IMG/VR virus record: IMGVR_UViG_3300042880_000509
Strand: one strand, 5' to 3'
DNA length: 64,000 bases
From: a virus
Lineage: Duplodnaviria; Heunggongvirae; Uroviricota; Caudoviricetes
In this document: one piece after another, positions 3,743 through 64,000 of the stretch
Layout: every line of letters starts with the position of its first letter
How positions within the stretch are numbered: the stretch's first letter is position 1
Notes under the pieces: model-generated
Database searches by the model: none
What the model was told of the DNA's origin: nothing
The model's input: the letters and a program-made list of their open reading frames with translations, nothing else
Translations under genes and position numbers: made by a program

Positions 3743-3793
3743 ATAAATAATAAATATAAATTAATATCAAATTGTCTATGATATTGATATTTT

Positions 3794-4117
3794 TTGTATA
3801 TTTGTATTATGATAAAGTTAATATTAAAAAACCTATATAGTTTTGTTTTAGAATCTGAAAATGAAAAACAAGAAAAATTAATCGGTAAATGTGTTAATGG
3901 ACATTTCTATAAATTAAATTATGGTTTTTGTAAGTATTGTAACTCAAAAACTAAAACTAAAGAAGTTTTCATACAACCGGTTGTTGAATCTAAAGTAAAA
4001 TCTAAAAAAGATGAACTTATGGAGTCTCTTAACTATTTGAAAAGTAAATCAAAAAGAACTAAACAAGACAATGAGTCTATATACACTCTTGAGATGGTAT
4101 TGAAAAATATGAAATGA
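3794..4117 (+). CDS. Hypothetical small protein with CxxGH...CxxC zinc-ribbon-like motif
   Basis: Plus-strand ORF fills an otherwise empty gap between two minus-strand genes. Contains CVNGH...CKYC. True start may be the internal Met at 3809. Confidence 0.35.
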   Translation: MYICIMIKLILKNLYSFVLESENEKQEKLIGKCVNGHFYKLNYGFCKYCNSKTKTKEVFIQPVVESKVKSKKDELMESLNYLKSKSKRTKQDNESIYTLEMVLKNMK

Positions 4118-4510
4118 TTACCAGTTTCTTTCTGTGTTGGTATTAATTTCTTCCTGGACTCTTACTAATGTTTTAATTTTATACTTTTTGAACATTCTTT
4201 CACCGATTGCGTATCCTATGTTATATAAACCAATTGCGTTTGTCCCACTATAATAATACACATTAATCCACACGATAAACCTTGGGTATTTATTACCGTA
4301 AATATCAAATCTTGATTCTTCTTTATTAATATCATTAATTTCAATTTTATCAATTAAGTTTGCAGCTTCACAATCATCAAATCCCAACCAACCAGGAAAA
4401 GTATCAGCATCCGGATCTTCCTCACAAATACTTTTAATTTCATCAAAGGTTGATAGAACTAATCTTTTAATTGTGTTTGAGAATTGACTTTCAGTTATTA
4501 GAAATTTCAT
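4118..4510 (-). CDS. Hypothetical protein with shared leader (MKFLITESQ...)
   Basis: 130 aa ORF. The N-terminal 20 aa match the leader seen on at least 10 other proteins. Confidence 0.6.
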   Translation of the reverse strand: MKFLITESQFSNTIKRLVLSTFDEIKSICEEDPDADTFPGWLGFDDCEAANLIDKIEINDINKEESRFDIYGNKYPRFIVWINVYYYSGTNAIGLYNIGYAIGERMFKKYKIKTLVRVQEEINTNTERNW

Positions 4511-4555
4511 ACTAATAAGTATTTCTATTGTTGAATAAATTTTTTATACTTTAGT

Positions 4556-4894
4556 ATGTCTTGTTTTAGTTTATACAATTTAACGATTCCAAATGTGAAA
4601 GTTGATCTTAAAGAAGAAAAGGTTAATAGAATTATTACTAATTTTTTAAGAAAAACTAGTAAAGGAAATATAATCGGTATTCGTTCAATAAAATATAAAC
4701 GAACTGTTCTTTATTCTGAAAATGAACCATTTAAAAATGAATTGATTCTTGAGTGTCATTGTAGAGATGGTTTAGGATTTCCAGGTATGAACACTTTACC
4801 CGAAAATATGCACGCAGTACTTAAACCTATCTTGAAAGATTTTTCTGATATAAAACTAGAGTATCATTACTCAATGTACTATTCTCGTGATTAA
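4556..4894 (+). CDS. Hypothetical protein
   Basis: 112 aa plus-strand ORF in a gap between minus-strand genes. Followed by a perfect 16-nt palindrome. Confidence 0.4.
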   Translation: MSCFSLYNLTIPNVKVDLKEEKVNRIITNFLRKTSKGNIIGIRSIKYKRTVLYSENEPFKNELILECHCRDGLGFPGMNTLPENMHAVLKPILKDFSDIKLEYHYSMYYSRD

Positions 4895-4934
4895 CAGATC
4901 CATATGCTTCACAACCAGCTTTTGATGATTTACA

Positions 4935-4950
4935 ACTTGTGATCACAAGT
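4935..4950. terminator. Perfect 16-nt palindrome ACTTGTGATCACAAGT between convergent genes; possible bidirectional terminator
   Basis: Exact inverted repeat read directly. T-rich sequence follows on the plus strand. Confidence 0.3.
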
Positions 4951-4975
4951 AATGTAATTATTAATATTATTTTTT

Positions 4976-5257
4976 TCATATAAATGATTTAGAGTGTATT
5001 TTATATATTAAATATCCTTCAATGTCACGTATCATCTGATCCACTATTGGATATGATTTATTATGACTCACAACCGATCTTGATGATAAGTACTTCATTC
5101 CGTTAGATAGGGTTTTGATTGATACAATGACACCATTTGAGAAATGTATCCTCTTAGGTGTTCTTTTTGTTATTTCAACTTTTTCTCCTCCGGATAAATA
5201 ATAGTCACCAACTTTACCGTTGTAAATAAACAAATTAGATTCTAAATTTAAATTCAT
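4976..5257 (-). CDS. Hypothetical protein
   Basis: 93 aa ORF with non-repetitive composition. Confidence 0.45.
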   Translation of the reverse strand: MNLNLESNLFIYNGKVGDYYLSGGEKVEITKRTPKRIHFSNGVIVSIKTLSNGMKYLSSRSVVSHNKSYPIVDQMIRDIEGYLIYKIHSKSFI

Positions 5258-5436
5258 TGTTCTGTAGTTATAAAGTCCACTAATCCTGGCATATCTTGTT
5301 TAACAAAGTAAAAACAAAATATAAAACCCATTGAAATATAGGTTAAAGGATTTATTCTATTTATGAAAACTCCTTTGTCTTTGAAGTTTTTTAAAATTTT
5401 GGTTTTGAATAAGAATGATTTAATCTGTTTTTTCAT
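5254..5436 (-). CDS. Hypothetical small protein, possible membrane segment
   Basis: 60 aa ORF whose start overlaps the stop of the downstream gene (ATGA). Has a hydrophobic stretch MGFIFCFYFV. Confidence 0.35.
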   Translation of the reverse strand: MKKQIKSFLFKTKILKNFKDKGVFINRINPLTYISMGFIFCFYFVKQDMPGLVDFITTEQ

Positions 5437-5474
5437 ATTTTTTATTTATACAAAGATAATAAAAAATATGAATC

Positions 5475-6395
5475 CTACATCCTGTCTGAATACATTTCGT
5501 AAAACTTTTCTGGCATTTTTAAATGGTCAAGATTTATAGGTTCTGATTGTCCTTTATTTTCCAATCTTTTTATAAATTCACGGATTCTAGGATAACCGCT
5601 CCAGTTTTGCCATTTTGAAATTATTTTTACATTACTAGGTATTGATTCATACGTTTGTTTTGTTGTTGGGTCAATAAGTCCAACAAAGTCAAAATCATCT
5701 TTAATATGTTTCCAAGCTTGTGTTCCTCCAGCAGAAAAACCACTTACAGATTTTATCTTATAATCATTTATTCCATTTTTAGTTAAAACATTTTTTAAAG
5801 TATCCAATGAATTTTCAAAATTACTATAAACTACATTTCTATCCGAAAAATATTTATCACCACCATTATTTTTCATCCATTTTGCACCATAAGTAGAGCT
5901 AGGATAACCGCCCCAAATAACAGTAATATCATCCGAATCGGGATCGTTCATTTCTATAATATATGTTCCACCATTTATTGTTTTACTTTCTTTTTTTGTT
6001 TCTTGTTTTTTTGGTTCTGATTTTTTATTTTTTTCTTCAGTATCTTTTTCTTCTGTTTTTTTTGAGAGTATTGATTTTAATTTTTCAATATCTTCAGTAT
6101 TCATTGTTCCGGTAACTTCTAGTCCTTCTTCTTCTTGGAATTTTTTTACATTTTTTTCTGTTTCATTTCCGTATTTACCATCAATACCAAATTTACCAAA
6201 ACTATAACCTAATTTATCAAGACCGGCTTGAATTGCAGCAACACCTTTAGTAAATGAGTAATTATTCATTCCTTTTCTATGGATTTCTCCACCGTCAATA
6301 ATTTCATCTAAATCATTTATGTAATCTTCAAATGATTTATTTTCAAGTAATCTTATCAATCTAGAAGTTTGACTTTCAGTTAGTATTATTTTCAT
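5475..6395 (-). CDS. Peptidoglycan-binding domain plus serine hydrolase (alpha/beta, G-F-S-A-G nucleophile elbow) with shared leader
   Basis: PG_binding_1-like GLDKLGYSFGKFGIDGKYGNETEKNVKKFQEEEGLEVTG. Lys/Glu-rich linker. C-terminal domain with GFSAGG (GxSxG). N-terminus MKIILTESQTSRLIRLLE. Confidence 0.65.
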   Translation of the reverse strand: MKIILTESQTSRLIRLLENKSFEDYINDLDEIIDGGEIHRKGMNNYSFTKGVAAIQAGLDKLGYSFGKFGIDGKYGNETEKNVKKFQEEEGLEVTGTMNTEDIEKLKSILSKKTEEKDTEEKNKKSEPKKQETKKESKTINGGTYIIEMNDPDSDDITVIWGGYPSSTYGAKWMKNNGGDKYFSDRNVVYSNFENSLDTLKNVLTKNGINDYKIKSVSGFSAGGTQAWKHIKDDFDFVGLIDPTTKQTYESIPSNVKIISKWQNWSGYPRIREFIKRLENKGQSEPINLDHLKMPEKFYEMYSDRM

Positions 6396-6397
6396 AG

Positions 6398-7936
6398 TTA
6401 TGGTTGCATTATTGTTGAAACATATTCATATGTTTCTTTTGGTAATTTATCTTTAAGGTCTTTAAATGATGTCTTGTTTTTTAATGCGTCAAAATAAACT
6501 TGTTTACCTGACTTTGGTGGGTATTGATACCATGCTCCACTATTATATGCGGCAATAGCAAGATCTAATCTTCCTGGGAATCTTCTAACATTTTCTGACA
6601 TTAGTTTTACATAAGCAGGTAAAGCGTCTTCAACCTTACAAGGATCACCTTTACCATATGAAGGCCAAGTTGTTGGCATAAATTGTGCGATACCTCTTGC
6701 TCCGGCTGTAGATGTATTTTTACAACTTATAACAGATGGTGAAAAAGCAGATTCGGCATATAATTGTCTCATGGCATATTTTATTGGGATTCCACCACTT
6801 TCAACCTCTGATTTAAATTTATTAAAATTAACGCCTTGTATATTTTTAAATTGTTCTTCTAAGTTTGATGGTATACTTCTTATTTTCACACCTGGATTTG
6901 TTATAACAAAAGATGTATTTTCTTCTGAACCACCTGACCCTTTTTTAACATCTTCAATTTGTCTACCAGAATATGTTTTAAATATCTTTTGGGTTAATTT
7001 ATCTTGGGTTTTTAAATCAAAAATTCCACTTTCGTTTAATCCATTATTTTTTTGGAATTTAGTAATTGCAACTTTAGTATTTCCATCAAGAATCCCATTA
7101 ATTTCTATTGAGTTATCTTTTGTTACGATAAACAATATTACTTGCATCATTCTTATTTTTTTGTCAGAACTATTTTGGTCAACAACTTCATTAGTTTTTA
7201 AAAATTCAAAGTATCTTTCAAAAAACTTTTTAAACTTTTCTTTTTTATCGTCATTAGTATTACCAGTTGTTTGGGTTTGGTTTGTCTTTTTTGTTTCTTT
7301 GATATAAGTCTCAACATGATCTTTAATTGTTTTGTGGTTTGATGGTCCTATGTGTATTCCATCTCCTGCCGCCCAATTACCATCACCACTTACCGTTGGT
7401 ATTATAATAGCATTTTTAATTTGTGAAGAAAGATCTTTTTGTAATTGGATCATTCTTTCTCTTCCTTTATACATACAATTTTGATCACAAAGGACTCTAC
7501 CATCTGGATATTTAGTTGGTTTTAAATTCTTATCTGTCATAACAGAACCCGCTTCATATCCTAAAAAAACATAAGCCTGACCACCTTGTTCATTAACAAC
7601 ATCTACCATTTTTTGGATGTTTGTTACGGCATTTGATAAATTGGTTCCTACCCAAAAAGCATCATTTGTTCCGCCGTATATGAATACTTTATCGTATTTT
7701 TTTTCTTTTAGTTTTGGTAACATATTACTCAACATCCAGTCTGTTTTTTTTCCTCCTTCAACAACATGAGTAACATTCCAGTCTGGGTGTGCTTTTGATA
7801 ACAAATAATTCCAGGTTTTTCCTCCGGTACTTAAACTGTCGCCAACAAACATGACATTTTCTTTAACTCTATCGTCATTTTCAGTTATTAAATTAACAAG
7901 AAATTTGAATTGGTTTTCAGAGACAAGTATTTTCAT
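6398..7936 (-). CDS. Three-domain cell-wall enzyme: SGNH/GDSL hydrolase, peptidoglycan-binding domain and SLT lytic transglycosylase, with shared leader
   Basis: FVGDSLS (GDS motif) and GGTND (SGNH block III). PG_binding_1-like VAITKFQKNNGLNESG. C-terminal ES...GARGIAQFMPTTW...AAYNSG (SLT family 1). N-terminus MKILVSENQFKFLVNLITE. Confidence 0.75.
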   Translation of the reverse strand: MKILVSENQFKFLVNLITENDDRVKENVMFVGDSLSTGGKTWNYLLSKAHPDWNVTHVVEGGKKTDWMLSNMLPKLKEKKYDKVFIYGGTNDAFWVGTNLSNAVTNIQKMVDVVNEQGGQAYVFLGYEAGSVMTDKNLKPTKYPDGRVLCDQNCMYKGRERMIQLQKDLSSQIKNAIIIPTVSGDGNWAAGDGIHIGPSNHKTIKDHVETYIKETKKTNQTQTTGNTNDDKKEKFKKFFERYFEFLKTNEVVDQNSSDKKIRMMQVILFIVTKDNSIEINGILDGNTKVAITKFQKNNGLNESGIFDLKTQDKLTQKIFKTYSGRQIEDVKKGSGGSEENTSFVITNPGVKIRSIPSNLEEQFKNIQGVNFNKFKSEVESGGIPIKYAMRQLYAESAFSPSVISCKNTSTAGARGIAQFMPTTWPSYGKGDPCKVEDALPAYVKLMSENVRRFPGRLDLAIAAYNSGAWYQYPPKSGKQVYFDALKNKTSFKDLKDKLPKETYEYVSTIMQP

Positions 7937-7985
7937 TATATTGTGTTATTAACAATAAATACTATAAAAAATATAATGTTAAAGT

Positions 7986-8183
7986 TTAGTGATTCAATTT
8001 TACTTTCCAGAAGTTGAAAAGTTCTTTATTGTTATAGTTATTTTTTTTACTGTCCCAACCACACATGTGGCAAAGGTATGGATGTTGATCTTCTTTTTCT
8101 TTACTCCAAGAATGACCACATTTACATTTGATCTTCTCACCAAAAAGTTTTTCAGCTTGTTTTTCTGTGATTAGAATTTTCAT
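7986..8183 (-). CDS. Small Cys/His-rich protein with shared leader
   Basis: MKILITEKQAEKL leader. CKCGH...CHMCGW suggests a zinc-binding fold. Confidence 0.5.
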   Translation of the reverse strand: MKILITEKQAEKLFGEKIKCKCGHSWSKEKEDQHPYLCHMCGWDSKKNNYNNKELFNFWKVKLNH

Positions 8184-9034
8184 AGGTTGTTAAAATTTCC
8201 TTTTTTGATTTTTTTATCGTCCAAAATAAAACATTTGTTTTCAACATCAATTTTATAACTTTTGTTTGGAAATGAAATATAATCACCGGTTGTAATATCA
8301 ACCAACATAATGTTTTCAACCTTCATACCAAGATAATTCTTTGGTAGTGGTGTGTTTAATATTAATTTTCCATCTTCTTCTGACATACCAGTTAATTCCT
8401 TTACTTGGAAACTCTTTCCGTTAATCTCCAAATCAATTCCGTGATCTCTATCTTGTTTAGATCCTGGAGGAAAATATTTGATATCGTATTTAGAGTTTTT
8501 TAATTTGTCAATAACATATTTTTCAGTGATACTTCCTTTATTGTAGGTATTCATATTAGCCCTAATAAGTTCTTTTAAAATAGGACCTTCATTTAATAAC
8601 CTTTCTTTATTATCAACTAACCATTTATAAAAATCTTTTGGTGTTTCACCTTTCTTTTCTTTTTTGAATATGTTTAGCAATCTATCTTTAACAAATTTGT
8701 GACCACCAAAATAATTTAAAATTGACCAACTTGTTAGTTCGTTAAGTGGATGTATGTCAATAATACCGCGTTTACTTTTATCTTCGTTCCAATCCAAATT
8801 ATCTTTATAAATTTCAAACAATAATTTATTTAAAAATTTAGCAAACCTACTATTATTTTGGATAAATTCAATATTTAAATTTCCTGGGTTGTTATCTTCT
8901 GAATCCACAATATTAATATAACCTTCTAATGATTTATCATTATTATTTTGATTAAAGTCAATTTCCATTTGATTTTCTGTTAGTCCCATCAAACTCAAAT
9001 TTCTTTTTATTTCGTTAATTATTGTTTTTTCCAT
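8180..9034 (-). CDS. Hypothetical protein (284 aa)
   Basis: Long ORF in coding-like sequence. Start overlaps the upstream gene stop (ATGA), suggesting translational coupling with the paralog array. Confidence 0.55.
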   Translation of the reverse strand: MEKTIINEIKRNLSLMGLTENQMEIDFNQNNNDKSLEGYINIVDSEDNNPGNLNIEFIQNNSRFAKFLNKLLFEIYKDNLDWNEDKSKRGIIDIHPLNELTSWSILNYFGGHKFVKDRLLNIFKKEKKGETPKDFYKWLVDNKERLLNEGPILKELIRANMNTYNKGSITEKYVIDKLKNSKYDIKYFPPGSKQDRDHGIDLEINGKSFQVKELTGMSEEDGKLILNTPLPKNYLGMKVENIMLVDITTGDYISFPNKSYKIDVENKCFILDDKKIKKGNFNNL

Positions 9035-9705
9035 TATTCAAAATTCTCCTCTTTTAATATTATTGGTTCACCTTTTGTAGTATTTCTTTCAACCCATACA
9101 TGATATAAATAACCATTATTATTTTGATTGTATAATTTTAATACTCCGTTACCACCGGCGTCTTCATCCCAACTATCGGTTTCTAATACTTCACTAATCA
9201 TCATTATTACGTCATAAGCAAAAAATCTGGTGTCTTGACGATTTAATTCCTTATTATTATATGTTATTGTACAGTCAAAATTATTTTCGTGTCCAGAATA
9301 ATCAATTATAAGTTCTTCAAGTTCCATATCTTCCATAAATTTTGATAGTGAATAATAGTCTCTTAATTGTCTCCAATCAAATTTCCTATTATCTTTTGAT
9401 TCTGTATATGTAAAATATTTTGGTATTAACATTATTTCTCTTTTTTTTGGATAAACACTAAAATCAACCCAGTATGCTGGTTCGTGTTTATCTGTTCTAT
9501 TATAAAGTTCTTCACCATAATTGGTTAGTATTGAATGAAAAAACTTTTTAAATATATCAATAATTGTAAATCTATGAGTTCTTTCTGTTACCCAATTTTC
9601 AGGAAAATGCTCAATATCACCAATCAACATATCAATATTTGTTCCTATTGGCCCAATTGGATTAAGGTATGCCATTAGTGCTCTAAATGTTCTTTTTTTT
9701 AACAT
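9034..9705 (-). CDS. Tandem-paralog family member 1 (223 aa), most divergent copy
   Basis: N-terminus MLKKRTFRALMAYLNPIG. Shares the YPKK..I and W-x-DAGGNG motifs with the neighbouring copies. Confidence 0.6.
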   Translation of the reverse strand: MLKKRTFRALMAYLNPIGPIGTNIDMLIGDIEHFPENWVTERTHRFTIIDIFKKFFHSILTNYGEELYNRTDKHEPAYWVDFSVYPKKREIMLIPKYFTYTESKDNRKFDWRQLRDYYSLSKFMEDMELEELIIDYSGHENNFDCTITYNNKELNRQDTRFFAYDVIMMISEVLETDSWDEDAGGNGVLKLYNQNNNGYLYHVWVERNTTKGEPIILKEENFE

Positions 9706-9710
9706 ATTAT

Positions 9711-10388
9711 TTAAGGTAAAGAATCTTCTGTTATTTCAATATCAATTTCATTTGAATCATCGTCCTCAGTATTCCACTCGTGATTAACACTTATTTCATC
9801 TTTTGTAAATACAATATTTCCTTGTGATCCTTCATTTATTTCCCAGCCCCCATATTCTTCGAGTAAATCATAGCAAATATGTTCAATATCTTCATCTATT
9901 TGTCCATTCTTATTTTTAGATGTATAATCACTTTCAATGTATCCGGAATCACCACCACCATTATAACTTATAGTCATATCTTCAATTCCTTCGTGTTCTA
10001 AGAATTTTCTTACTTCCATAAATGTAGAATACATACCATCATCTTCTTCATAATCATCAATATATACTTCATATCCACTATCTGATGTGCCGTATGATGT
10101 AAACCTAACTTGGTTAAAAACAATTTTATTTTCAAACGGATAAATCTCTCCATCAACATAAAAATAATCACTTGCACTTTGTACAGAGCCAGGACCTTCA
10201 TCGTATAATTCATTGGTATATAGTTCAAGAATTGTTTGGAGATGTGATTCAAAATTTGATGTAATATCAACACCGTAATAAATATTTATATCTTCAATAT
10301 GAGTTTCACTTATTGTAATTTCAAAAGGTATTGATTCCTTTTTAAACCCTTTCAGGTATGCCATTAACATTTTAAATTTTTTTTTCAT
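9711..10388 (-). CDS. Tandem-paralog family member 2 (225 aa)
   Basis: MKKKFKMLMAYLKGFKK. Contains IYPFENKIVF, NGGGDSGYIES, GGWEINEGSQGNIVF and HEWNTED. Confidence 0.65.
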   Translation of the reverse strand: MKKKFKMLMAYLKGFKKESIPFEITISETHIEDINIYYGVDITSNFESHLQTILELYTNELYDEGPGSVQSASDYFYVDGEIYPFENKIVFNQVRFTSYGTSDSGYEVYIDDYEEDDGMYSTFMEVRKFLEHEGIEDMTISYNGGGDSGYIESDYTSKNKNGQIDEDIEHICYDLLEEYGGWEINEGSQGNIVFTKDEISVNHEWNTEDDDSNEIDIEITEDSLP

Positions 10389-11086
10389 TATTGGTAAGTA
10401 TCTAAATTTATTTCTAATCTCATATCAGTTGGTTCGTAATCTTGATCTTTGGTAAAACCTTTTACAAAAATACTGTCACCCCAAACTATAATGTTTCCTT
10501 CAGCACCGGCTTCCATATTCCAAAACCTACTATTAGTTATTTTTTGCATAAGTTCATTAGTAATCATCCATAAATCTTCACTCATTTGATTGGTAATTTT
10601 AATTAGTTGTCCATCAAGTTCAAGATCGTAAATATGACCATCATCCCAACGACCATAAAAATCAAATTCAAATTTTACTAGGTCTTCATTATCTTCATAA
10701 AATGATAATATTCTTTCTTTACTTTCTTTTGACATATCACCATAATATGTATCATATTTAAATCTTTCTCTATTTTCAACTTTACATGAAGATGTAAAAA
10801 TAATTTTATTTTCAAATGGATGTATTTCAATATTCAAATACCAATATTCGTCAATATCTAAATCAAGATAGTTATAAAAATCATCCATGTGATTTTTAAT
10901 TAATTCTTCTATGAATTTTTCAAAATGTGATGGTAATAATAGTCTTTTTGTATTTCTTTGTTCATTTGTCACATCAAATCTACCCCAATCTTCAATGTGA
11001 GTCCTATCCATTACAATAGAAGTATCAACAAGATGTCCTTTGAGTCCTCTTAAAAAAGCAAAAAATAATTTTAATCTTTGTTTCAT
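10388..11086 (-). CDS. Tandem-paralog family member 3 (232 aa)
   Basis: MKQRLKLFFAFLRGLKG. Contains IHPFENKIIF and WNMEAGAEGNIIVWG. Shares 1 nt with the neighbouring gene. Confidence 0.65.
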   Translation of the reverse strand: MKQRLKLFFAFLRGLKGHLVDTSIVMDRTHIEDWGRFDVTNEQRNTKRLLLPSHFEKFIEELIKNHMDDFYNYLDLDIDEYWYLNIEIHPFENKIIFTSSCKVENRERFKYDTYYGDMSKESKERILSFYEDNEDLVKFEFDFYGRWDDGHIYDLELDGQLIKITNQMSEDLWMITNELMQKITNSRFWNMEAGAEGNIIVWGDSIFVKGFTKDQDYEPTDMRLEINLDTYQ

Positions 11087-11772
11087 TCTTCTATATTGTC
11101 CGGTGTTACATTTATATTCATTTCTGTCATCTCATGATCTTTGGATTTTGTAAAAAATTCCATTCTTATTGATTTATCTTTCTCAACGTAAATTGTACCG
11201 TAACTACCAGGTCCATCAGTCCACCATCTGTCAAGAATATTTGTCATTAATTGATCTGTTAACTCAATATAATTTATATCGTCATTTATAAAAATATAAA
11301 AATCAAGGTTAACATCTATTTGATCATAATTACCATTAAATTCAAAATTAAATTTATCTTTATCTTTTAGATCTTCATTAAATATTGTATCAACTAAATC
11401 AAGAGTAGTTGTTGATAATTGTGTATTTTTTCTATTTAAACTAAATGTTTGTTGGCCATCATATTCGCTTACTATCTCACATTCGCTTTGAAAATTTATT
11501 CTATTTTGTTTTGGGTAAACATATACAAGTAATGTCCACCATTCACTTTCATCATAATCGTTTTCTCTGTGAAACTTTTGCATATATGATTTTAATATGT
11601 CCTCAAATGTCTCTTGTAATTTTGTTGGTAATTCTATTTCTTTACCTTCTTTGGTTGTAAATTTTAAATCCCAACTTTCCATATGGTTATAGTCAAAATT
11701 GATATATGTATCCAATACATCTGTTTTAAATGCTCTAAAATATGCAAGTAATAATTTTAATTTTTGTTTCAT
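11083..11772 (-). CDS. Tandem-paralog family member 4 (229 aa)
   Basis: MKQKLKLLLAYFRAFKT. Contains VYPKQNRINF and WWTDGPGSYGTIYVE. 4-nt overlap with the neighbouring gene. Confidence 0.65.
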   Translation of the reverse strand: MKQKLKLLLAYFRAFKTDVLDTYINFDYNHMESWDLKFTTKEGKEIELPTKLQETFEDILKSYMQKFHRENDYDESEWWTLLVYVYPKQNRINFQSECEIVSEYDGQQTFSLNRKNTQLSTTTLDLVDTIFNEDLKDKDKFNFEFNGNYDQIDVNLDFYIFINDDINYIELTDQLMTNILDRWWTDGPGSYGTIYVEKDKSIRMEFFTKSKDHEMTEMNINVTPDNIEE

Positions 11773-12437
11773 TCTTCCAGGTCATCTTCTTTAATTTCAA
11801 TTGTATCATGACAATCAACCATTTCTCTCATATTCCATTCGTGAGAAATTACAATTTCCAAATTATTATTTAATTCAATTGTTCCGACAGATCCGTCATC
11901 TATCTCCCAACCACCGTAAGCGTTTTCTAGATTATCATAAAGTGTGTTCCAAATTAATTTATTGTCATCACTATCTGAATGCCAGGTAATGTTTGAACTT
12001 TCACCATCAACTGTTATTGAATCGATATCTCCGCTGTCTCCACCACCACTATATCTTGCTTCAATTATTTCAACACCAGTTGTTTTAAAATAATCTTCTA
12101 ATTCTGGGTTTTTTAATTTTCTTTCATAAGTTTCAGCTTGTGATGTATATTCTTCTGCTTTCATTGAAACCACAATTTTTTTATCTTTCGGGTATATGTC
12201 GGCAATTACATTATAGTAATCGCTTTCACTCCAGCAATCTATATCATTTATTTGATCTTCTATTGACTCTAAAATATCAGTAATAAGGTTAACAATATTT
12301 TTAGGTAGTGATTGTATTTCAACACCAAAAGGCCATTGCCATTCAGTATTACCATCATAATTGTTCCATATAACAGATATTTTGTCCTTTTTGAGTTTAG
12401 ACAAAAAAGACATTAACATTCTAAATTTTCTTTTCAT
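11769..12437 (-). CDS. Tandem-paralog family member 5 (222 aa)
   Basis: MKRKFRMLMSFLSKLKK. Contains IYPKDKKIVV, YSGGGDSGDIDS, GGWEIDDGSVGTIEL and SHEWNMRE. 4-nt overlap with the neighbouring gene. Confidence 0.65.
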   Translation of the reverse strand: MKRKFRMLMSFLSKLKKDKISVIWNNYDGNTEWQWPFGVEIQSLPKNIVNLITDILESIEDQINDIDCWSESDYYNVIADIYPKDKKIVVSMKAEEYTSQAETYERKLKNPELEDYFKTTGVEIIEARYSGGGDSGDIDSITVDGESSNITWHSDSDDNKLIWNTLYDNLENAYGGWEIDDGSVGTIELNNNLEIVISHEWNMREMVDCHDTIEIKEDDLEE

Positions 12438-12866: not shown

Positions 12867-13559
12867 ATGAAAAACCTTATTAGGAAAATATTAAAAGAAG
12901 AGACATCTGACAGAGCAAAAGAAAAACTTGTAAAGCCATATCTTTCAAAATTTGAAAATGTTGGTTATGTTGAAAACGATGATATACCATATTTTGAATC
13001 TAATAGTTTAAATGAGAATAGTAATCCAGTCAAAAACTTTTGGTTTAAAAAATGGACCAAACAAAAAGAAAAGGGTGAGAATCCATCAATTTATGATATT
13101 GAAAAGTTAGGGTTTTCTAATAAAAGAAATGAGATTGTTCAATACTTTGTAGATTTTATGGGTTACGGTGATGGAAACACAAGATCTAACGCTATTAAAC
13201 AATATCTCTTAAATCATACTTTTACGGAGAAAGAAATTACCGAAATGGATAACTTTGATCAGGGTAAAATTCAAATAAGATTTAATAAAGTTCAATTTTT
13301 AGAAAGTCAAAATAATTACGGTAAAAACTTTTTAGATTTAGATTGCGAATTTGTTGTTTTAAGTGGTTCATTTTATAATAGTGAAGAAGGTGAAACTTAT
13401 AACTTTTCAAGTGACGATAATCCATTTGATGATTTTGTAACATACTTTGAGTTTAAAGAAGAAATAGAACAAGTTGTTGAGAGTTTTGTACATAAAGTTG
13501 TTGAGTTGTTTGGTTTTAATATAAACAATGATTTTGATTATATCAGTGTAAAATGGTAA
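12867..13559 (+). CDS. Hypothetical protein with shared leader (MKNLIRKILKEET)
   Basis: 230 aa. Leader nearly identical to that of the DHH protein. Stop overlaps the next start (TAATG). Confidence 0.6.
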   Translation: MKNLIRKILKEETSDRAKEKLVKPYLSKFENVGYVENDDIPYFESNSLNENSNPVKNFWFKKWTKQKEKGENPSIYDIEKLGFSNKRNEIVQYFVDFMGYGDGNTRSNAIKQYLLNHTFTEKEITEMDNFDQGKIQIRFNKVQFLESQNNYGKNFLDLDCEFVVLSGSFYNSEEGETYNFSSDDNPFDDFVTYFEFKEEIEQVVESFVHKVVELFGFNINNDFDYISVKW

Positions 13560-14134
13560 TGAAAAATTTAATTAAAAAAATATTAAAGGAAGAGGAAGGT
13601 AATAAGGTTGTAAAAAACTATGTTACTAAAATGTTTAAAAAACAAGTTGATTCTGGTTTAACACCACGCATACCATATGAAGATTTACGAAAAAAAAAAC
13701 TTACCCAACATATTGAGCTAATTGATAAATGGTATTTTGAATTTTTGGAAAATCATTATGGTGTTAGTAGTGGTTTTGAAAAAGCTAAAACTTTATATGA
13801 AGAAGCGGTTAAGACTGTTACTGAAAAGGATTTAAAAAGTGTTGACATTGATACTGGCCAAGACAAATTTTTGGTATCAATTCCCTGGATAGAGTTTTAT
13901 GATATAGATTCTGAAAGAAGAAATGTTGTTTTTGGTTTTGCGATAATTGACTGTTATTTAGAAACTGATAATGGAATGAAAACATATGAAGAAATGTTAG
14001 ATAATACGTTTCCAGATTACATGTGGAATGATGTAACTGATATTTTAAGACAACAAATTGAGGAATATGTTCAAATTAGGGGTTACGATTTTGGTCTTGA
14101 TATTCTTGTTTCAGAATCGGTTTGGTCTGATTAA
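13559..14134 (+). CDS. Hypothetical protein with shared leader (MKNLIKKILKEEE)
   Basis: Start taken at the second ATG (13559), overlapping the upstream stop. Followed by a hairpin terminator. Confidence 0.6.
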   Translation: MKNLIKKILKEEEGNKVVKNYVTKMFKKQVDSGLTPRIPYEDLRKKKLTQHIELIDKWYFEFLENHYGVSSGFEKAKTLYEEAVKTVTEKDLKSVDIDTGQDKFLVSIPWIEFYDIDSERRNVVFGFAIIDCYLETDNGMKTYEEMLDNTFPDYMWNDVTDILRQQIEEYVQIRGYDFGLDILVSESVWSD

Positions 14135-20329: not shown

Positions 20330-21000
20330 TAAGGTTAGATAAAAATAGTGAAACAGATTTAATTAAACTCTTTGAGTCCAAGAACGTTGGGCTTGAGGGG
20401 AATGTTATTAAATTAATTGAGTCTGATAACGACGAATTTAAAACCTATCTAACTAAATGTACTGATAAAGATAAAGATTCCAGACGTAAACGATTAGAGA
20501 TAACAAAAAAAATACAATTACAAAACAATGAATTATCTGATCTAAACGAACAGAATCAAAAGATGATGGAGGATCTTCAGTCCACACTAAAAGAAGCTGA
20601 AGAACAAAAAGTAAAAATTGAGGCTCAGAATGGTGAGTTAGTCGCTTGGAGAGAAGAGAACGAAAAGATACAACAGGAATTACAAAAGGAGATGATTAAA
20701 TCTGAAAGTGCAAGAATACGTGCCGAAGAAGCAAAGACAAACGCAATCAACGATCTTGACATCCTCCAAAAGAAAAACCAAACGGAATTAATATCAACAA
20801 TTGTAAGGGTTGCCCTTTATATTATTGTTGGTGTTGGTATTGTTACTACCGGAGTATATGTATTCACTATTGTTATGGGTAAAGACACACAAGTTATTAG
20901 TGCCGCTTGGTCAAACATATTTGGTATACTTCTAACAAACGCATTCTCAATTGTGGGAACCATTATGGGTATTAAATACGCAACAGAAAATAAACAATAA
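20326..21000 (+). CDS. Coiled-coil protein with two C-terminal transmembrane helices; possible lysis regulator/holin-like component
   Basis: About 150 aa of heptad-like E/K/Q-rich sequence, then IVRVALYIIVGVGIVTTGVYVFTIVMG and WSNIFGILLTNAFSIVGTIMGI. 4-nt overlap with the REC gene. Lies immediately upstream of the endolysin. Confidence 0.55.
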   Translation: MIRLDKNSETDLIKLFESKNVGLEGNVIKLIESDNDEFKTYLTKCTDKDKDSRRKRLEITKKIQLQNNELSDLNEQNQKMMEDLQSTLKEAEEQKVKIEAQNGELVAWREENEKIQQELQKEMIKSESARIRAEEAKTNAINDLDILQKKNQTELISTIVRVALYIIVGVGIVTTGVYVFTIVMGKDTQVISAAWSNIFGILLTNAFSIVGTIMGIKYATENKQ

Positions 21001-21010
21001 AATAAAAACT

Positions 21011-21835
21011 ATGTTATTAAAAGTAGGATCGAAAGGAGACGATGTAAAAAAACTTCAAGAAAAATTAGGATTAACGGCTGATGGTTCTTTTGGACCTAAA
21101 ACTGAAACGGTGGTAAAAGAATGGCAAACTAAAAACGGATTAACCGCTGATGGTATTGTTGGTGATGGTACTTGGGCTAAAATGTTCGGAACAACTCAAG
21201 TAGTTAAAGAAGATGTTGTGATTACACCAGTTGTAGGACTAAACGTTGAGAAACTAAAAGGTCACATTCCTGATGTTGTTATTGCACAGATAGCGGAAAC
21301 CGCAAAGAAATTTAACATTACAACAAATCTTAGACTTGCTCACTTTTTATCACAATGTGGACATGAGTCAGGAGGATTTAAAGCGGTATCAGAAAATTTA
21401 AACTATTCGGCTGACGGATTAAAAAGAACGTTTGGTAAATACTTTCCTGGTAACTTGGCAGAATCATATGCTAAACAACCAGAAAAGATTGCATCAAGAG
21501 TTTATGCTAACCGTATGAGTAACGGAGATGAAGCGTCAAAAGAGGGTTATAAATTTAGAGGGAGAGGTTATATTCAGTTGACAGGCAAAGGAAACTACAC
21601 AAGTTTTACTAAATTTATTGGTGAAGATTGTGTTGCAAATCCTGATCTTGTTGCTACTAAATACCCATTGGCATCTGCCGCATTTTTCTTTGATTCAAAT
21701 AAACTTTGGTCAATATGTGATAAAGGTGCTGATGATGCTGCGGTAACTGCGGTAACAAAACGAGTAAATGGGGGAACCATAGGACTTGCTGATAGAATCA
21801 AACACTTTAAAGAGTATTATAATTTGTTAAAATAA
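21011..21835 (+). CDS. Endolysin: N-terminal peptidoglycan-binding domain plus GH19 glycoside hydrolase domain
   Basis: PG_binding_1 motif KLQEKLGLTADGSFGPKTETVVKEWQTKNGLTADGIVG. GH19 motifs FLSQCGHESGGF and YKFRGRGYIQLTGKGNY. Start chosen at 21011 (MLLKVGSKGDD). Confidence 0.85.
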   Translation: MLLKVGSKGDDVKKLQEKLGLTADGSFGPKTETVVKEWQTKNGLTADGIVGDGTWAKMFGTTQVVKEDVVITPVVGLNVEKLKGHIPDVVIAQIAETAKKFNITTNLRLAHFLSQCGHESGGFKAVSENLNYSADGLKRTFGKYFPGNLAESYAKQPEKIASRVYANRMSNGDEASKEGYKFRGRGYIQLTGKGNYTSFTKFIGEDCVANPDLVATKYPLASAAFFFDSNKLWSICDKGADDAAVTAVTKRVNGGTIGLADRIKHFKEYYNLLK

Positions 21836-35559: not shown

Positions 35560-35847
35560 TTATTTTTTTACAATAGCTTTTGTGAGCTGGTTTATCAGTC
35601 CTTGGACTTCTCCGAAATTATTGAACCGGATTTGTGGATCGGTATTAAAAACCTCAACATACCAATTGTCTTCTTTTATTTCTTCATTTGTTGGTGTGAT
35701 AAATGTCAACCCATCAACAATATCAAGGGCATAGTAATACGAATCATCTTCATCGTGTTCTTTAATTTCTTCACTTTTAAAACCTAAAAGTATTAATTCT
35801 CTTTCTGTCATATTATTTTGTTTCAACAATGTTATAAGTTCCTTCAA
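35560..35847 (-). CDS. Hypothetical protein (95 aa)
   Basis: ORF. Confidence 0.45.
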   Translation of the reverse strand: MKELITLLKQNNMTERELILLGFKSEEIKEHDEDDSYYYALDIVDGLTFITPTNEEIKEDNWYVEVFNTDPQIRFNNFGEVQGLINQLTKAIVKK

Positions 35848-36076
35848 TTACCCCATAAGATGATTCTTCCTGAAACTGGTATGTTTCAGCAACATCACTA
35901 GAATCCATAGGTCTTGTTAAGTACCAGACTTGAGTTTCTTTCCAAGTCACTGTAACTAACTTTCTTCCTTTAGGTAGGTTGATTGTTCCTTTTCCACCCC
36001 AAGTTTTTACTCTTTCGTTCTCCGTACAAGATGTTATCATAACACCCATTAAAACCGTTAAAAATACTTTTTTCAT
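35813..36076 (-). CDS. Small lipoprotein (lipobox ITSC)
   Basis: MKKVFLTVLMGVMITSCTE is a signal peptide with a lipobox Cys. Confidence 0.55.
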   Translation of the reverse strand: MKKVFLTVLMGVMITSCTENERVKTWGGKGTINLPKGRKLVTVTWKETQVWYLTRPMDSSDVAETYQFQEESSYGVIEGTYNIVETK

Positions 36077-36327
36077 TTTATTAATTTTACTTTTATTATT
36101 TCACCTTTTCTATTTGTCTTATATTTCATTCTAAACGTGTCAACTAATATTGCGTTTTGTTCTTTCAGATACAAACAATTCCATTCACAACTATCATGAT
36201 GGTATAAATGTACATGTATTTCTTTTAATTTACCACACCTCAAATAGGTTATATCTTTGTAATTCCAATTTGAACAACTGGATAATACCAACAATACAAG
36301 TATAAGGATTTTATTTATCATAATCAA
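36073..36327 (-). CDS. Small lipoprotein (lipobox LSSC)
   Basis: MIMINKILILVLLVLSSCSNW. Confidence 0.55.
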   Translation of the reverse strand: MIMINKILILVLLVLSSCSNWNYKDITYLRCGKLKEIHVHLYHHDSCEWNCLYLKEQNAILVDTFRMKYKTNRKGEIIKVKLIK

Positions 36328-36539
36328 TTAGTTTGTTTAATTACGTATGGAGGACTAATTCTTACTTCACTACTATCGCTATTAAAGTAGTATACCGTAT
36401 CACCATCAAAACTAATTGTGTCTGTGTACCAGATTGCTGGATGTGGTCCTTCTTTAGTTTCAACAGTTCCTTCTATCTTATATTTGTATTCAGTCTGAGT
36501 ACAAGAAGTTAAAAATAATAATGCTAATAATTTTTTCAT
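36324..36539 (-). CDS. Small lipoprotein (lipobox LTSC)
   Basis: MKKLLALLFLTSCTQ. Confidence 0.55.
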   Translation of the reverse strand: MKKLLALLFLTSCTQTEYKYKIEGTVETKEGPHPAIWYTDTISFDGDTVYYFNSDSSEVRISPPYVIKQTN

Positions 36540-52165: not shown

Positions 52166-52600
52166 TTATTTTGGTGTGATTCTATATTTGAAGAAGGGTA
52201 TGTTTGTTTTTACTTTTTTTACATCGTGATGATCATTATAATCCATCTTAACCATTTCTTCATAATCAATGGTGTATTTGTTGTCATTATAATTTGATGT
52301 TAATTCATCGCCTTTTTTAATATCTTTGATTGTTTTACCATAAATTTTATTACCAACTTTGGTATTTTTGATATTTGGATCAAAACTATGATTAAGGTAT
52401 CTAACCGGTTCTCCACCAAAATAGGACCCATCTTTGATTATAACATAAAGATATTCAGTATTTTTTTTAATATCTTCTTTAGCAAAAACACCTTTTCCGG
52501 CAATTTTACTTTTTTTTACTTCAATTTTATCATAAAAAGAATTATCTAACTTTTTTTTATTAGTCTCCTCAGTTAAAATTCTTTTTATAATTGATTTCAT
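52166..52600 (-). CDS. SET-domain protein (putative protein-lysine methyltransferase) with shared leader
   Basis: SKIAGKGVFAKEDIKKNTEY (GxG motif), RYLNHSFDPN (NHSxxPN) and GDELTSNY (ELxxxY). N-terminus MKSIIKRILTEET. Confidence 0.65.
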   Translation of the reverse strand: MKSIIKRILTEETNKKKLDNSFYDKIEVKKSKIAGKGVFAKEDIKKNTEYLYVIIKDGSYFGGEPVRYLNHSFDPNIKNTKVGNKIYGKTIKDIKKGDELTSNYNDNKYTIDYEEMVKMDYNDHHDVKKVKTNIPFFKYRITPK

Positions 52601-52611
52601 AATAATAAATA

Positions 52612-53847
52612 TTATGATCTACGAAAATTATATGTGGTTTGAATCGGCCTTTTACCATATCTTTTTTCCATAAGTTTTTGGTGTAGTTCCCAATCTAATA
52701 TAGATTCATTTGTTTGTTCTTTTTCATCTGGGATTAATGAATAAACTTTTGATATTCTTTTAATTAGTTTTGTTGCAACATAATTAAATCTTTCACATTC
52801 ATCTTTAAAAAAGTCCATCTCTCTATCAGCGTATTTTGTAACGTGATTTTTATATTTTTTAAGAACTTTTGATTTATCTTCTGTTGGTTCTTTTCCACCA
52901 AAAAGTTGTGATAAAGGTCCCATTTTTGAAAACATTTGTTCTTCGTGTGACAATACCATATTTTCAAAAAACCCAACTTTAAGACCTGATAAGTTAATAT
53001 AAACCAATTCTAAGACTATTTTTATATTTTCTTCGGGTGAGTTTTCTTTTGGTTTTTCTCCAGCATGTTCAAGTAATTCAAATACTTTATCCATTTGATT
53101 ATATAAACTTTGAATCAAGTATTCAAATGAAAAGTTTTGTATTTTTTTTAATTCTTTAATTGTTTCATCTTTCATTATAAACTCATAAAACTTTTCTTTT
53201 GTTATTCCATTTTGTATCATTCTTGATGCAATCTCTGTCGGCCTAACAACATTTTCTTCGTTCTGAATAAAATAACTATATCTCATAAATTCATTTATAA
53301 CTGGTATTCCAAAATTTAACCTTCCAGATGCGTATGTCTGATAATCGGCGGTATTGCCGGCCAAACCTTTTGACTTTTTAGTTCTTCTAAATCTGTGCAT
53401 TAATTCGTGGGCCATTATAGAAGTATTATGTATTTTTTGTTCTATAAAAACCATATATAAATCACTTGCTTCCCAACCTTCAGGAACTACGAAATGGATG
53501 TGTAAATCTATTGTTGATGTTTCTTTATTTAATTGCATCAATATACCTTCATCAAAATCAAATTCATTTCCAACACCCATAGCGGCAATTACAGGTTCAA
53601 CACCTTCGTAACCCTCTAATTCATCAACTCTAACAATTAAATTTAAATGTGTAAAATTTACATCAGAAACAGTTAAATCAATTTTAATATCCTCAAACAA
53701 ATATTCTTCTTTATCGGTTGAGTTTATTTCCTTTAATTTATCTTTAACAATATTGTATAATACTCTGGCTTCGTTTAGAATATTTTCTGGAACACCTGCA
53801 GCTTCTTTAATTAATTTCAATTGACTTTCTGTTATAATGATTTTCAT
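52612..53847 (-). CDS. Putative zinc metalloprotease (HEXXH) with shared leader
   Basis: SIMAHELMHRF, a single HExxH. N-terminus MKIIITESQLKLIKE. Length 411 aa. Confidence 0.55.
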   Translation of the reverse strand: MKIIITESQLKLIKEAAGVPENILNEARVLYNIVKDKLKEINSTDKEEYLFEDIKIDLTVSDVNFTHLNLIVRVDELEGYEGVEPVIAAMGVGNEFDFDEGILMQLNKETSTIDLHIHFVVPEGWEASDLYMVFIEQKIHNTSIMAHELMHRFRRTKKSKGLAGNTADYQTYASGRLNFGIPVINEFMRYSYFIQNEENVVRPTEIASRMIQNGITKEKFYEFIMKDETIKELKKIQNFSFEYLIQSLYNQMDKVFELLEHAGEKPKENSPEENIKIVLELVYINLSGLKVGFFENMVLSHEEQMFSKMGPLSQLFGGKEPTEDKSKVLKKYKNHVTKYADREMDFFKDECERFNYVATKLIKRISKVYSLIPDEKEQTNESILDWELHQKLMEKRYGKRPIQTTYNFRRS

Positions 53848-53873
53848 AATAATAAATATAATGGAGTTGTGAT

Positions 53874-57322: not shown

Positions 57323-57973
57323 TTATTTTATACTCACAGTATTATCTAATATATTTGGGTTTTCAATTAATTTATCCGGAGTTGTTTTAACCATTAAAGC
57401 TGTCCCACTTTTAGATTTAGTTGCCAACTTATTTGTATAATTATCAATCAAATTATCAAATCTTACAATAGAAGTATATGTTCCAGCTTTCAACTTTTCA
57501 TAATGGTTTCCTGTGATTTTATTTAAAAAAGTTAATGAATAATCAGGAACCGATTTTGAAAGTTTTTTATCGGAATACTTAACCCATGTTTTATCATCTT
57601 GTTTAATATTCTTATCCATTTTAGAAATCGCTCCTTTGATTGCCCTTTCAAGAATTTCAATATTTTTGAATTTACACTCAATTTTAATTATGTATTCAGT
57701 ATAATTTTCAGTTATAATAACATTTGAAATTCCCTCTTCTTTTGATAAATGTTCTTTGAATGTTTTAATATTCTCTTTTATTTCAGGAAGTTTCATAACC
57801 TTTTTCCCATCCAAACTATCTAAAGCAAGTATTGATGTTACACTTGTTTTACTTTGACTTAAATTGATTGTGTATTTAAAAACACCACTACCATCAAGGT
57901 TTAATTTTATGTCGTCAATAATTTCAACACAAGAAGTTAAGGTAAAGATTAAAAGTAGATAAAGGTATTTCAT
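57323..57973 (-). CDS. Lipoprotein (216 aa)
   Basis: MKYLYLLLIFTLTSCVE is a signal peptide with a lipobox. Confidence 0.6.
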   Translation of the reverse strand: MKYLYLLLIFTLTSCVEIIDDIKLNLDGSGVFKYTINLSQSKTSVTSILALDSLDGKKVMKLPEIKENIKTFKEHLSKEEGISNVIITENYTEYIIKIECKFKNIEILERAIKGAISKMDKNIKQDDKTWVKYSDKKLSKSVPDYSLTFLNKITGNHYEKLKAGTYTSIVRFDNLIDNYTNKLATKSKSGTALMVKTTPDKLIENPNILDNTVSIK

Positions 57974-63638: not shown

Positions 63639-63698
63639 TAAAACCTCCGGTTTGGAATGTTTTTTTATCTTTTAATGTATTTATTAAAAAACGCATTA

Positions 63699-64000
63699 AT
63701 GAATAAAGATAGGTTTTTACAACTTTTAGAGTCTAAACTAGGTAATGTTAAGCCATTACTTAATGAAACCTATGTTAATTATGCCGGTCAAACACAAAAT
63801 GTTGGAACCGTTGACCCTTATGGTGGCATGGCTAAAGTTGACACAAAAAACGGTACAGTAACATTAAATATACGAGTTGATTTTGAAGCTCAAGAGGATG
63901 GGGGATGGCCAGAAATGAGATTATCTAAAGGAACAACTTTTAAAAAACAAAATAACGGCACACTAGTTAGCTCAAATCAAACATATCAACTTGTTTCTGA
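63699..64000 (+). CDS. Hypothetical protein, partial (continues past window end)
   Basis: ATG at 63699 (MNKDRFLQLLESKLGN...). Open to the window edge. Confidence 0.45.
   Translation, partial: MNKDRFLQLLESKLGNVKPLLNETYVNYAGQTQNVGTVDPYGGMAKVDTKNGTVTLNIRVDFEAQEDGGWPEMRLSKGTTFKKQNNGTLVSSNQTYQLVS

Follow-up and report, generated by a model that had tools for sequence, protein, structure and literature searches.

Can a bacteriophage deliver a protein-lysine methyltransferase into its host together with its DNA? The question is raised by a 144-amino-acid open reading frame (ORF) at positions 52166 to 52600 of a 64,000-nucleotide stretch of DNA from a tailed virus of the class Caudoviricetes (IMG/VR record IMGVR_UViG_3300042880_000509); that whole stretch is called the window here. 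A first-pass annotation had read the ORF as a SET-domain protein preceded by a virion leader and had suggested that the protein is possibly injected and could modify nucleoid-associated or ribosomal proteins of the host. The features described below are best explained by a gene for a predicted miniature S-adenosylmethionine (SAM)-dependent protein-lysine methyltransferase. That the enzyme would also be packaged, trimmed, injected, and active on a host protein is a longer chain of steps, to which we assign a probability of roughly 0.3 to 0.4. The naming of nucleoid or ribosomal proteins as its targets is pure speculation.

The SET open reading frame

The motifs on which the SET assignment had originally been based, GxG, NHSxxPN, and ELxxxY, are all intact at the residues given in Table 1. 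A search with the Pfam SET model (PF00856), which had been proposed as a check, matched the ORF with an E value of 1.7e-12 and 48.1 bits, above the gathering cutoff of 22.4, and a phage protein family with no assigned function, phrog_28741, matched it with an E value of 6.8e-11. Sequence matches in the PDB were exclusively to SET enzymes, namely KMT2C, ASH1L, and the chlorovirus protein vSET (1n3j), with E values of about 1e-5. In a pairwise BLASTP comparison with a vSET sequence whose length and numbering are consistent with the PDB match, the two proteins were 30% identical (E = 3e-10), and Y104 of the phage protein aligned with the catalytic Y105 of vSET. Across 13 homologs, down to 34% identity, residues G37, N70, S72, N76, G97, E99, and Y104 were invariant and H71 was nearly so; a careful alignment thus revealed no loss of the catalytic tyrosine or of the NHS motif.

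The ORF is a real gene under purifying selection, with a ratio of nonsynonymous to synonymous substitution rates (dN/dS) of 0.09 to 0.11 against two relatives, and the identical protein is encoded on at least 19 metagenome contigs from freshwater samples; a contig of 50 to 200 kb is listed among those that encode it. An exact 38-nucleotide piece of the gene gave no match in IMG/VR. A profile search of 1.8 billion representative sequences returned mainly canonical bacterial SET proteins and gave little information on the N-terminal leader. Taken together, the ORF is almost certainly a member of the SET family.

A short N-terminal leader shared by unrelated proteins

The shared leader that had been noted at the N terminus proved to be present: the N termini of three further ORFs in the window (type-A ORFs in Table 1) agree with residues 2 to 12 of the SET protein at 9 of 11 similarity positions, and in a control none of 16,384 internal positions in the window ORFs scored above 8. 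The consensus of this 12-residue leader, termed type A, is MKxLIRKILKEE. The window encodes four type-A leaders and five of a second type, type B (MKIIITESQ), one of which belongs to the gene directly upstream of SET. Besides type B, window ORFs also carry a type-C-like form (..EIKRNLSLMGLTE) and a fourth N-terminal motif (LLESKLGNVKPLLNE). Type C itself reads MNLQEQIxRIxxMMG..xE. A degenerate DNA pattern for the type-A consensus retrieved 75 IMG/VR stretches, on contigs of up to 380 kb; a blastn search of the phage collection with the consensus leader DNA returned low-complexity noise only. Related loci contained 98 distinct type-A cargos, 35 type-B cargos, and 8 type-C cargos, several types often occurring on one contig, and together the three types stand on more than 140 unrelated proteins of related viral contigs.

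In 92 type-A examples, I5, I8, L9, and E11 were invariant, L4 and R6 were nearly invariant, and conservation ended after residue 12. The codons varied: L4 was encoded by TTA (38), CTA (21), or CTT (17), I5 by ATT (53), ATA (24), or ATC (15), and R6 by AGA (49), CGT (17), and also AGG. Because the amino acids are invariant while the codons vary, the leader is selected as protein, and a signal acting purely as DNA or mRNA was rejected. Moreover, the leader must be translated, since there is no alternative in-frame start upstream of the SET core. An AlphaFold2 (AF2) model placed a helix at leader residues 2 to 12 with low confidence. The leader is very probably a protein-level address tag. A secretion or lipoprotein signal was considered and rejected, as the leader has 12 highly charged residues and neither a hydrophobic core nor a lipobox.

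A marine contig that is a distant relative (IMGVR_UViG_3300020392_000021; L042:1-20249) has four consecutive type-A leader genes and, in addition, hybrid leaders (..IRLTESDLKRIVKRILTEQ), and it also encodes a mini-SET protein of 104 to 106 amino acids that has no leader. Because this marine relative carries type-A leaders, the leader system spans marine and freshwater phages.

Exchange of N termini and fusion of the SET core

Close homologs of the SET protein (72 to 92% identity) were compared at their N termini. The core carries leader A in the window sequence and in P0001, P0002, and L009, leader C (MNLREDINRIKEVMGI.ES) in P0003 to P0005, and no leader in P0017; the cyanophage forms of the core have none either. 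In four IMG/VR contigs from different samples (L007, L008, L010, and L011), SET is fused in frame behind the type-B 411-amino-acid protein to give a 542-amino-acid ORF, which is also represented by a cluster of 16 sequences on 6 contigs (P0185). What separates the split form from the fused one is a cassette of about 50 nucleotides that holds a stop codon, ATATTTATTATT, the start codon ATG, and the opening codons of the leader. At the fusion junction (...YNY-ITE-SDKKKLDNS), I-T-E stands where the split form has L-T-E, with different codons.

A second, independent fusion of 720 amino acids was found in L012 (3259-5418, plus strand) and L014. The first 494 residues of the L012 protein are 50.7% identical to the window type-A cargo encoded at 2168-3742; there follow IQE-500, a SET core 50% identical to that of the window (Pfam E = 5e-11), and LKE-608. 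The protein contains five [L/I]-x-E tripeptides in all, three of which mark the end of the leader and the two flanks of SET. The NHS motif of the L012 fusion reads NHK.

The 411-amino-acid protein has 788 homologs, in which H147, E148, and H151 of an HExxH motif (HELMH, residues 147 to 151) are invariant. It had no match in Pfam, PHROG, or NCBIfam and no fold match.

T4-type head genes and a candidate cleavage site

The tripeptide [L/I]-x-E is invariant in all three leader types, as L-K-E at residues 9 to 11 of type A, as I-T-E at residues 5 to 7 of type B, and after MMG in type C, and both fusions keep it just before SET (ITE in the 542-amino-acid form and IQE-500 in the 720-amino-acid form). 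The prohead protease gp21 of phage T4 cuts after Glu, and the sites at which it trims Alt, an injected enzyme, are ITE-6 and LTE-619 (PMC5694885). We infer that a protease of this kind would cut the SET protein after LTE-11.

Leader-bearing contigs encode homologs of T4 gp17, gp18, gp19, gp20, gp21, and gp23 (terminase, sheath, tube, portal, protease, and capsid protein), as found in phmmer searches with T4 gp17 to gp24. The gp21 homologs occur on at least six such contigs, with E values of about 3e-22 and conserved GELNHP and SSRG motifs, and at five loci just 4 nucleotides separate the gp21 homolog from a gene with a type-A leader. The capsid protein of these contigs has its closest cultured match in Flavobacterium phage vB_FspM_immuto, at 41.6% identity. 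Proteins of the window are 60 to 97% identical to those of the leader-bearing contigs, and the GC content is similar.

At those five loci (L108:6179-7708, minus strand, with equivalents in L117, L124, L129, and L136), the gene next to the protease encodes a 510-amino-acid CCA-adding/poly(A)-polymerase-head protein with a type-A leader. The gene for this CCA-adding-type protein (Pfam E = 8.6e-37) lies inside the head module and is oriented divergently from the protease gene.

The T4 capsid-targeting sequence (CTS), which we take to be MKTYQEFIAE, shares with the leader an MK start, a length of 10 to 12 residues, an amphipathic character, and an [I/L]-x-E end. The internal proteins of T4 are highly diverse, and the CTS has been described as all that is conserved among them (PMC3012670). 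The three internal proteins IPI to IPIII and Alt are thus like the leader-bearing proteins in that a short N-terminal peptide ending in [L/I]-x-E is the only common feature of unrelated proteins. The T4 internal proteins also have their N-terminal propeptide removed, and Alt modifies proteins and is injected along with the DNA (PMC3012670; PMC5694885). The phages differ from T4 in having at least three leader families, with dozens of cargos per lineage, and in that the SET protein would be a methyltransferase and Alt is an ADP-ribosyltransferase.

The nature of the cargos also points toward the virion. Among 132 leader cargos, about 100 have no Pfam domain. Cell-wall enzymes are represented by peptidoglycan (PG)-binding, lysozyme, SLT, and GDSL-esterase domains. 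Effector-like cargos include SET, a dual-specificity phosphatase, GNAT, C39-like, C70-like, and SprT-like peptidases, a GIY-YIG nuclease, and the CCA-adding-type nucleotidyltransferase. One window cargo matches phrog_342, "internal virion protein with endolysin domain" (E = 1.2e-15). Because enzymes that act in the periplasm and enzymes that act in the cytoplasm share leaders, ejection from the virion is the simplest account.

With these observations, the reading of the N terminus as a virion leader, put forward in the first-pass annotation, is the best-supported hypothesis: it agrees with a portable protein-level module ending in L-T-E and with T4-type head genes on leader-bearing contigs, though the case is circumstantial. 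That the leader is specifically a T4-style capsid-targeting propeptide we judge, from these sequence comparisons, to have a little better than even odds.

A promoter-like motif shared with virion genes

The motif ATATTTATTATT abuts the SET start codon, with further exact copies elsewhere in the window (Table 1). Its core, TATTTAT(A/T), stands ahead of the genes for sheath, tube, portal, and protease in T4-like contigs that bear leaders and ahead of the terminase and portal genes in Flavobacterium phage immuto. Within 30 nucleotides upstream of the gene, the motif is present for 39 to 62% of leader genes; the corresponding shares are 21% for other ORFs and 1.4% for random 30-nucleotide windows. 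It resembles the late promoter of T4, TATAAATA, when read as its reverse complement. Since the ATATTTAT motif is common to SET and structural genes, it suggests that SET is coexpressed with virion genes. The form ATATTTAT(A/T) also occurs 3 to 30 nucleotides before many ATG codons of the window, at about 16 further sites, and often abuts the start codon; the corresponding mRNAs may be leaderless.

Table 1. Positions in the window of the SET gene, its parts, and the related features discussed in the text
Feature	Position	Strand	Basis or remark
SET-domain ORF, 144 amino acids, ATG start	52166..52600	minus	ORF listing; stop codon 52166-52168
Type-A leader MKSIIKRILTEE, residues 1-12 of SET ORF	52565..52600	minus	Common to three more window ORFs
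L9-T10-E11, candidate prohead-protease site	52568..52576	minus	Sole [L/I]-x-E in SET ORF
Minimal SET core, residues 24-105	52286..52531	minus	Pfam, alignment, PDB matches, AF2/Foldseek
GKG in AGKGVFA (residues 34-40; GKG, 35-37)	52490-52498	minus	Coordinates checked
NHSFDPN in RYLNHSFDPN (residues 67-76)	52373-52393	minus	Coordinates checked
ELTSNY in GDELTSNY (residues 97-104), with catalytic-type Tyr104	52289-52306	minus	Coordinates checked
C-terminal extension, residues 106-144, ending IPFFKYRITPK	52169..52285	minus	Alignment of relatives
Promoter-like motif ATATTTATTATT abutting SET ATG	52601..52612	minus	Exact copies elsewhere in window
Exact ATATTTATTATT copies before 411-amino-acid gene / ORF 2168-3742	53848-53859 / 3746-3757	minus	Sequence search
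411-amino-acid neighbor upstream of SET, leader MKIIITESQ; SET fusion partner in relatives	52612..53847	minus	ORF listing
Type-A cargo, 524 amino acids, weak DHH-like match; homolog fused to SET in L012 and L014	2168..3742	minus	Sequence search
Type-A leader ORFs besides SET	2168-3742(-), 12867-13559(+), 13559-14134(+)		N-terminal comparison
ORFs with further leader families besides the SET type	4118-4510(-), 5475-6395(-), 6398-7936(-), 7986-8183(-), 52612-53847(-), 8180-9034(-), 63657-64000(+)		
Ordinary endolysin, separate from leader cargos	20951-21835	plus	Distinct from the leader-bearing cell-wall enzymes

Proposed route from gene to host

The following route would connect these observations. 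The SET gene would be transcribed together with virion genes from a late promoter of the ATATTTAT type, and the portable, amphipathic leader would dock the protein in the scaffold core while the prohead assembles, the path by which the CTS brings T4 internal proteins and Alt into the head. A prohead protease of the gp21 type would then trim the leader after L-T-E(11), and the mature enzyme of about 133 residues would be ejected with the DNA to methylate lysines of a host protein as infection begins. In sister phages, cuts at the flanking [L/I]-x-E sites would free the same mature SET from the 542- and 720-amino-acid polyproteins. It is from the gene sequences that we infer the packaging, cleavage, ejection, enzyme activity, and substrate of SET.

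Weighing the route against alternatives

Several observations, given here and in the two discussions that follow on cellular location and on the size of the core, weigh against this route. There was no head, portal, protease, or terminase gene in the window and its flanks of about 20 kb (about 85 kb in all). The window has no close genes in common with any of 80 gp21 loci, or with any of more than 100 loci selected by a clade-specific gp21 peptide pattern. Extension of the flanks and a walk by way of a conserved Metallophos gene led to a 201-kb contig but to no structural genes. The T4-like nature proposed for this particular phage is therefore judged from its shared leaders and genes and similar GC content. 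The tripeptide [L/I]-x-E carries little information, about 1.2 occurrences being expected by composition in a protein of the size of SET. By inspection, the leader also shows no sequence homology to the T4 CTS, and the likeness is one of analogy.

The alternatives are taken here in declining order of probability. It is possible, if somewhat unlikely, that SET is an ordinary intracellular enzyme that is not packaged, the leader serving to dock it to a common partner (a chaperone, a membrane patch, or a replication or assembly factory) or acting as a tag for proteolysis or regulation. Most viral mini-SET proteins have no leader, including gp204 of the cultured cyanophage P-SSM7, and packaging is for that reason not intrinsic to SET function. 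Typical cytoplasmic enzymes are present among the leader cargos, and some, such as the CCA-adding-type enzyme, would be equally functional if simply expressed in the cell. The missing head genes near SET fit an intracellular role as well. Such a role does not explain, however, why peptidoglycan hydrolases and an internal-virion-like SLT domain share the leaders although a separate endolysin exists, why [L/I]-x-E is invariant and kept at two fusion junctions, or why the promoter motif is common to structural genes.

A second alternative is that SET is packaged, or expressed late, but that its substrate is a phage protein, such as the 411-amino-acid HExxH partner or internal or capsid proteins, methylated during assembly. 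The Rosetta-stone fusions of SET to two different leader-bearing phage proteins, the adjoining position of the 411-amino-acid gene with its identical promoter motif, and the late-looking expression of SET are all consistent with it, and a bound partner could supply the SET-I insert that SET lacks. Against this, nearly all of the 788 members of the 411-amino-acid family have no adjacent SET gene, and in L123 the homolog is followed directly by a homolog of the window's next gene, with no SET between the pair. SET is therefore an accessory to the 411-amino-acid protein and not its required modifier, and a fusion may mean merely a common destination. We consider a phage substrate unlikely.

A third alternative, which we hold to be improbable, is that SET is a catalytically dead fold, a binding domain or a decoy, lacking SET-I and the Cys-rich post-SET region. 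The phage SET core has about 82 residues, followed by a 39-residue extension, and its spacing from GxG to NHS is 33 residues, compared with 54 in vSET. About 30 residues of SET-I in MLL3 are left unmatched by HMMER, the match being split into two stretches. Little is thus left of SET-I, the insert that normally makes up one half of the substrate groove. The AF2 model, made from a shallow alignment, was only moderately confident, with a predicted local distance difference test (pLDDT) score of 60.7 overall, 70 to 88 in the core strands, and low values at residues 56 to 70; its best Foldseek matches in the PDB, which speak for SET membership, were SET or PR domains (MLL1, PRDM3, and vSET 3kma; E of about 2e-4), though at TM-scores of only 0.4 to 0.53. 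No Cys-rich post-SET region is present in the ORF, its place being taken by a different, 39-residue extension that is kept only in close relatives (P0001 to P0007, P0017, and the fused forms). The extension, modeled at low confidence, may have a role like that of a post-SET or C-flanking region.

With the SET-I substrate-binding insert essentially absent, lysine methyltransferase activity is uncertain. The short SET-I lowers confidence in a standard mode of substrate binding, not in family membership. Against a dead fold stand the SAM-binding and catalytic motifs, all of them kept in homologs as distant as 34% identity, and the strongly purifying selection. Furthermore, mini-SET proteins were found in 100 IMG/VR stretches, and the SET ORFs from 80 viral loci were mostly of 97 to 106 amino acids. 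Since the short form is the rule across this phage family, a working minimal enzyme is favored over decay. Judged from its sequence, methyltransferase activity of the SET protein is likely but not assured.

Finally, a nucleic-acid element at the leader codons (a promoter, start, or translation-initiation cassette for near-leaderless mRNAs, or a recombination site) would suit the compact cassette of about 50 nucleotides that separates split and fused forms, the promoter-like motif abutting the ATG, and the A-rich first codons, but it is very improbable given that near-invariant leader residues are written in varying codons, that leader genes inside operons keep the peptide without the promoter motif, and that I/L-T-E persists at the fusion junction in different codons.

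Comparison with known systems and significance

By function the phage SET protein is closest to T4 Alt and PBCV-1 vSET, and by descent it belongs to an unstudied family of phage mini-SET proteins. The chlorovirus PBCV-1 packages vSET in its virion, and the enzyme acts early on host chromatin (PMC7019647). The vSET protein (A612L; PDB 1n3j/3kma) is likewise a minimal viral SET, and its GxG, NHS, and catalytic tyrosine align with those of the phage protein. It differs in coming from a eukaryotic virus, in having histone H3K27 as its substrate, and in the absence of an N-terminal leader, and the phage protein is not its orthologue. In the phage protein the stretch from GxG to NHS is shorter by about 17 to 21 residues, and the C-terminal extension, of 39 residues, is a different one. 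At 119 amino acids, vSET has been called the smallest histone methyltransferase (PMC7019647).

The mini-SET proteins of PHROG 28741, among them P-SSM7 gp204, are of the same family, have the same short SET-I, and occur in T4-like aquatic phages, but they have 97 to 106 amino acids and neither a leader nor the C-terminal extension; gp204 itself, of 99 amino acids, is annotated as "hypothetical protein." Another SET ORF, ORF62 of Stenotrophomonas phage Ps15, is merely listed (PMC9025141). In the literature that we searched, there was no study of the function of any phage SET protein and no description of these leaders. One literature match for a phage SET was a false positive, an "Ig-like I-set domain."

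Bacterial and archaeal SET proteins, such as NUE/cpnSET of Chlamydia, RomA of Legionella, and Go1-SET of Methanosarcina, are lysine methyltransferases that act on histones or on histone-like or nucleoid proteins. Canonical bacterial SET proteins gave the strongest profile matches to the phage SET, but they are larger, have a complete SET-I and usually a Cys-rich post-SET region, and are cellular or secreted proteins and not virion cargo.

The leader-bearing proteins also recall the polyvalent proteins, in which effectors such as peptidases, transglycosylases, and modifying enzymes enter with the DNA of phages and conjugative elements (Iyer et al. 2017, PMC5512222). The 542- and 720-amino-acid SET fusions are small multidomain versions of this arrangement. 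Unlike polyvalent proteins, the cargos described here are mostly separate genes with their own leaders, and the SET protein of the window has a single domain, where the polyvalent definition takes two or more. The polyvalent-protein paper makes no mention of SET domains (PMC5512222).

More broadly, and tentatively, aquatic T4-like phages of Bacteroidota may possess a large and so far undescribed cargo-addressing system, in which several leader families of 7 to 20 residues ending in [L/I]-x-E would direct dozens of interchangeable effectors to the phage head for injection. Its cargo would include the smallest functional SET lysine methyltransferase known, with a core of 82 residues, provided with its own leader or excised from a polyprotein and methylating a nucleoid, transcription, or translation protein of the host within seconds, as the counterpart of both vSET and Alt. 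If the proposed route is true, this would be the first bacteriophage to deliver a protein-lysine methyltransferase with its DNA, and lysine methylation would join the ADP-ribosylation of T4 Alt among the injected chemistries of host takeover. A SET enzyme below the size of vSET would also be of use for structural work and engineering. The leader may matter more than SET, as a short modular tag on more than 100 unrelated proteins that would flag virion cargo among the "hypothetical" genes of an abundant group of freshwater and marine phages. Foreign proteins could be packaged by means of it, a use to which the T4 CTS is already put, and the split and fused SET variants predict sites of protease cleavage.

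Neighboring genes, host, and cultured relatives

Positions 1-8183 of the window (minus strand) contain a cluster of leader-bearing cell-wall enzymes, distinct from the endolysin gene: a lysozyme-domain protein of more than 725 amino acids (790 amino acids in L091), a protein with GDSL-esterase, PG-binding, and SLT domains, and a PG-binding protein. These enzymes resemble virion-associated lysins. At 9034-12437 (minus strand) are five tandem paralogs of about 225 amino acids with similar N termini (MKQRLKLFFAFLRGLK...), which have only a weak DUF6878 match in Pfam and no PHROGs family. There are no tRNA genes in the window.

The phage that encodes SET is uncultured, AT-rich, and from fresh water, and it is probably a T4-like myovirus of Flavobacteriia. 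Several small ORFs with lipoprotein-type signals (for example, MKKLLALLFLTSC and MKYLYLLLIFTLTSC) are present at 35813-36539 (minus strand) and 57323-57973 (minus strand), and two DNA methyltransferase genes near 45.3 to 48.3 kb have 82 to 89% DNA identity to Flavobacterium phage genes. A host in Bacteroidota similar to Flavobacterium fits both the lipoprotein-type signals and these DNA methyltransferase genes. The left flank of the window (L091:19380-20093, plus strand) encodes a 237-amino-acid metallophosphoesterase with more than 7,900 homologs, the top 120 of which are at least 81% identical, and some of the homologs are on contigs of 180 to 305 kb. To judge from these homologs, this lineage is evidently common to a very high degree in metagenomes from fresh water, and some of its genomes are of jumbo size.

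Against cultured phage records, a tblastn search with the SET ORF found only leaderless cyanophage ORFs (P-SSM7 and P-RSM6), and the 411- and 512-amino-acid leader proteins gave no useful match in 50,697 phage records. The cultured T4-like phage immuto (L368; NC_055915, 100001-150000) has N-terminal motifs of its own, MKKSQLRxIIKE... in four copies and M(E/A)xNFDLKKFLVENKLT in four copies. Some of these motifs head small ORFs that lie between portal and protease, the place taken in T4 by the prohead-core proteins gp67 and gp68, and immuto may serve as an experimental model for the function of the leader.

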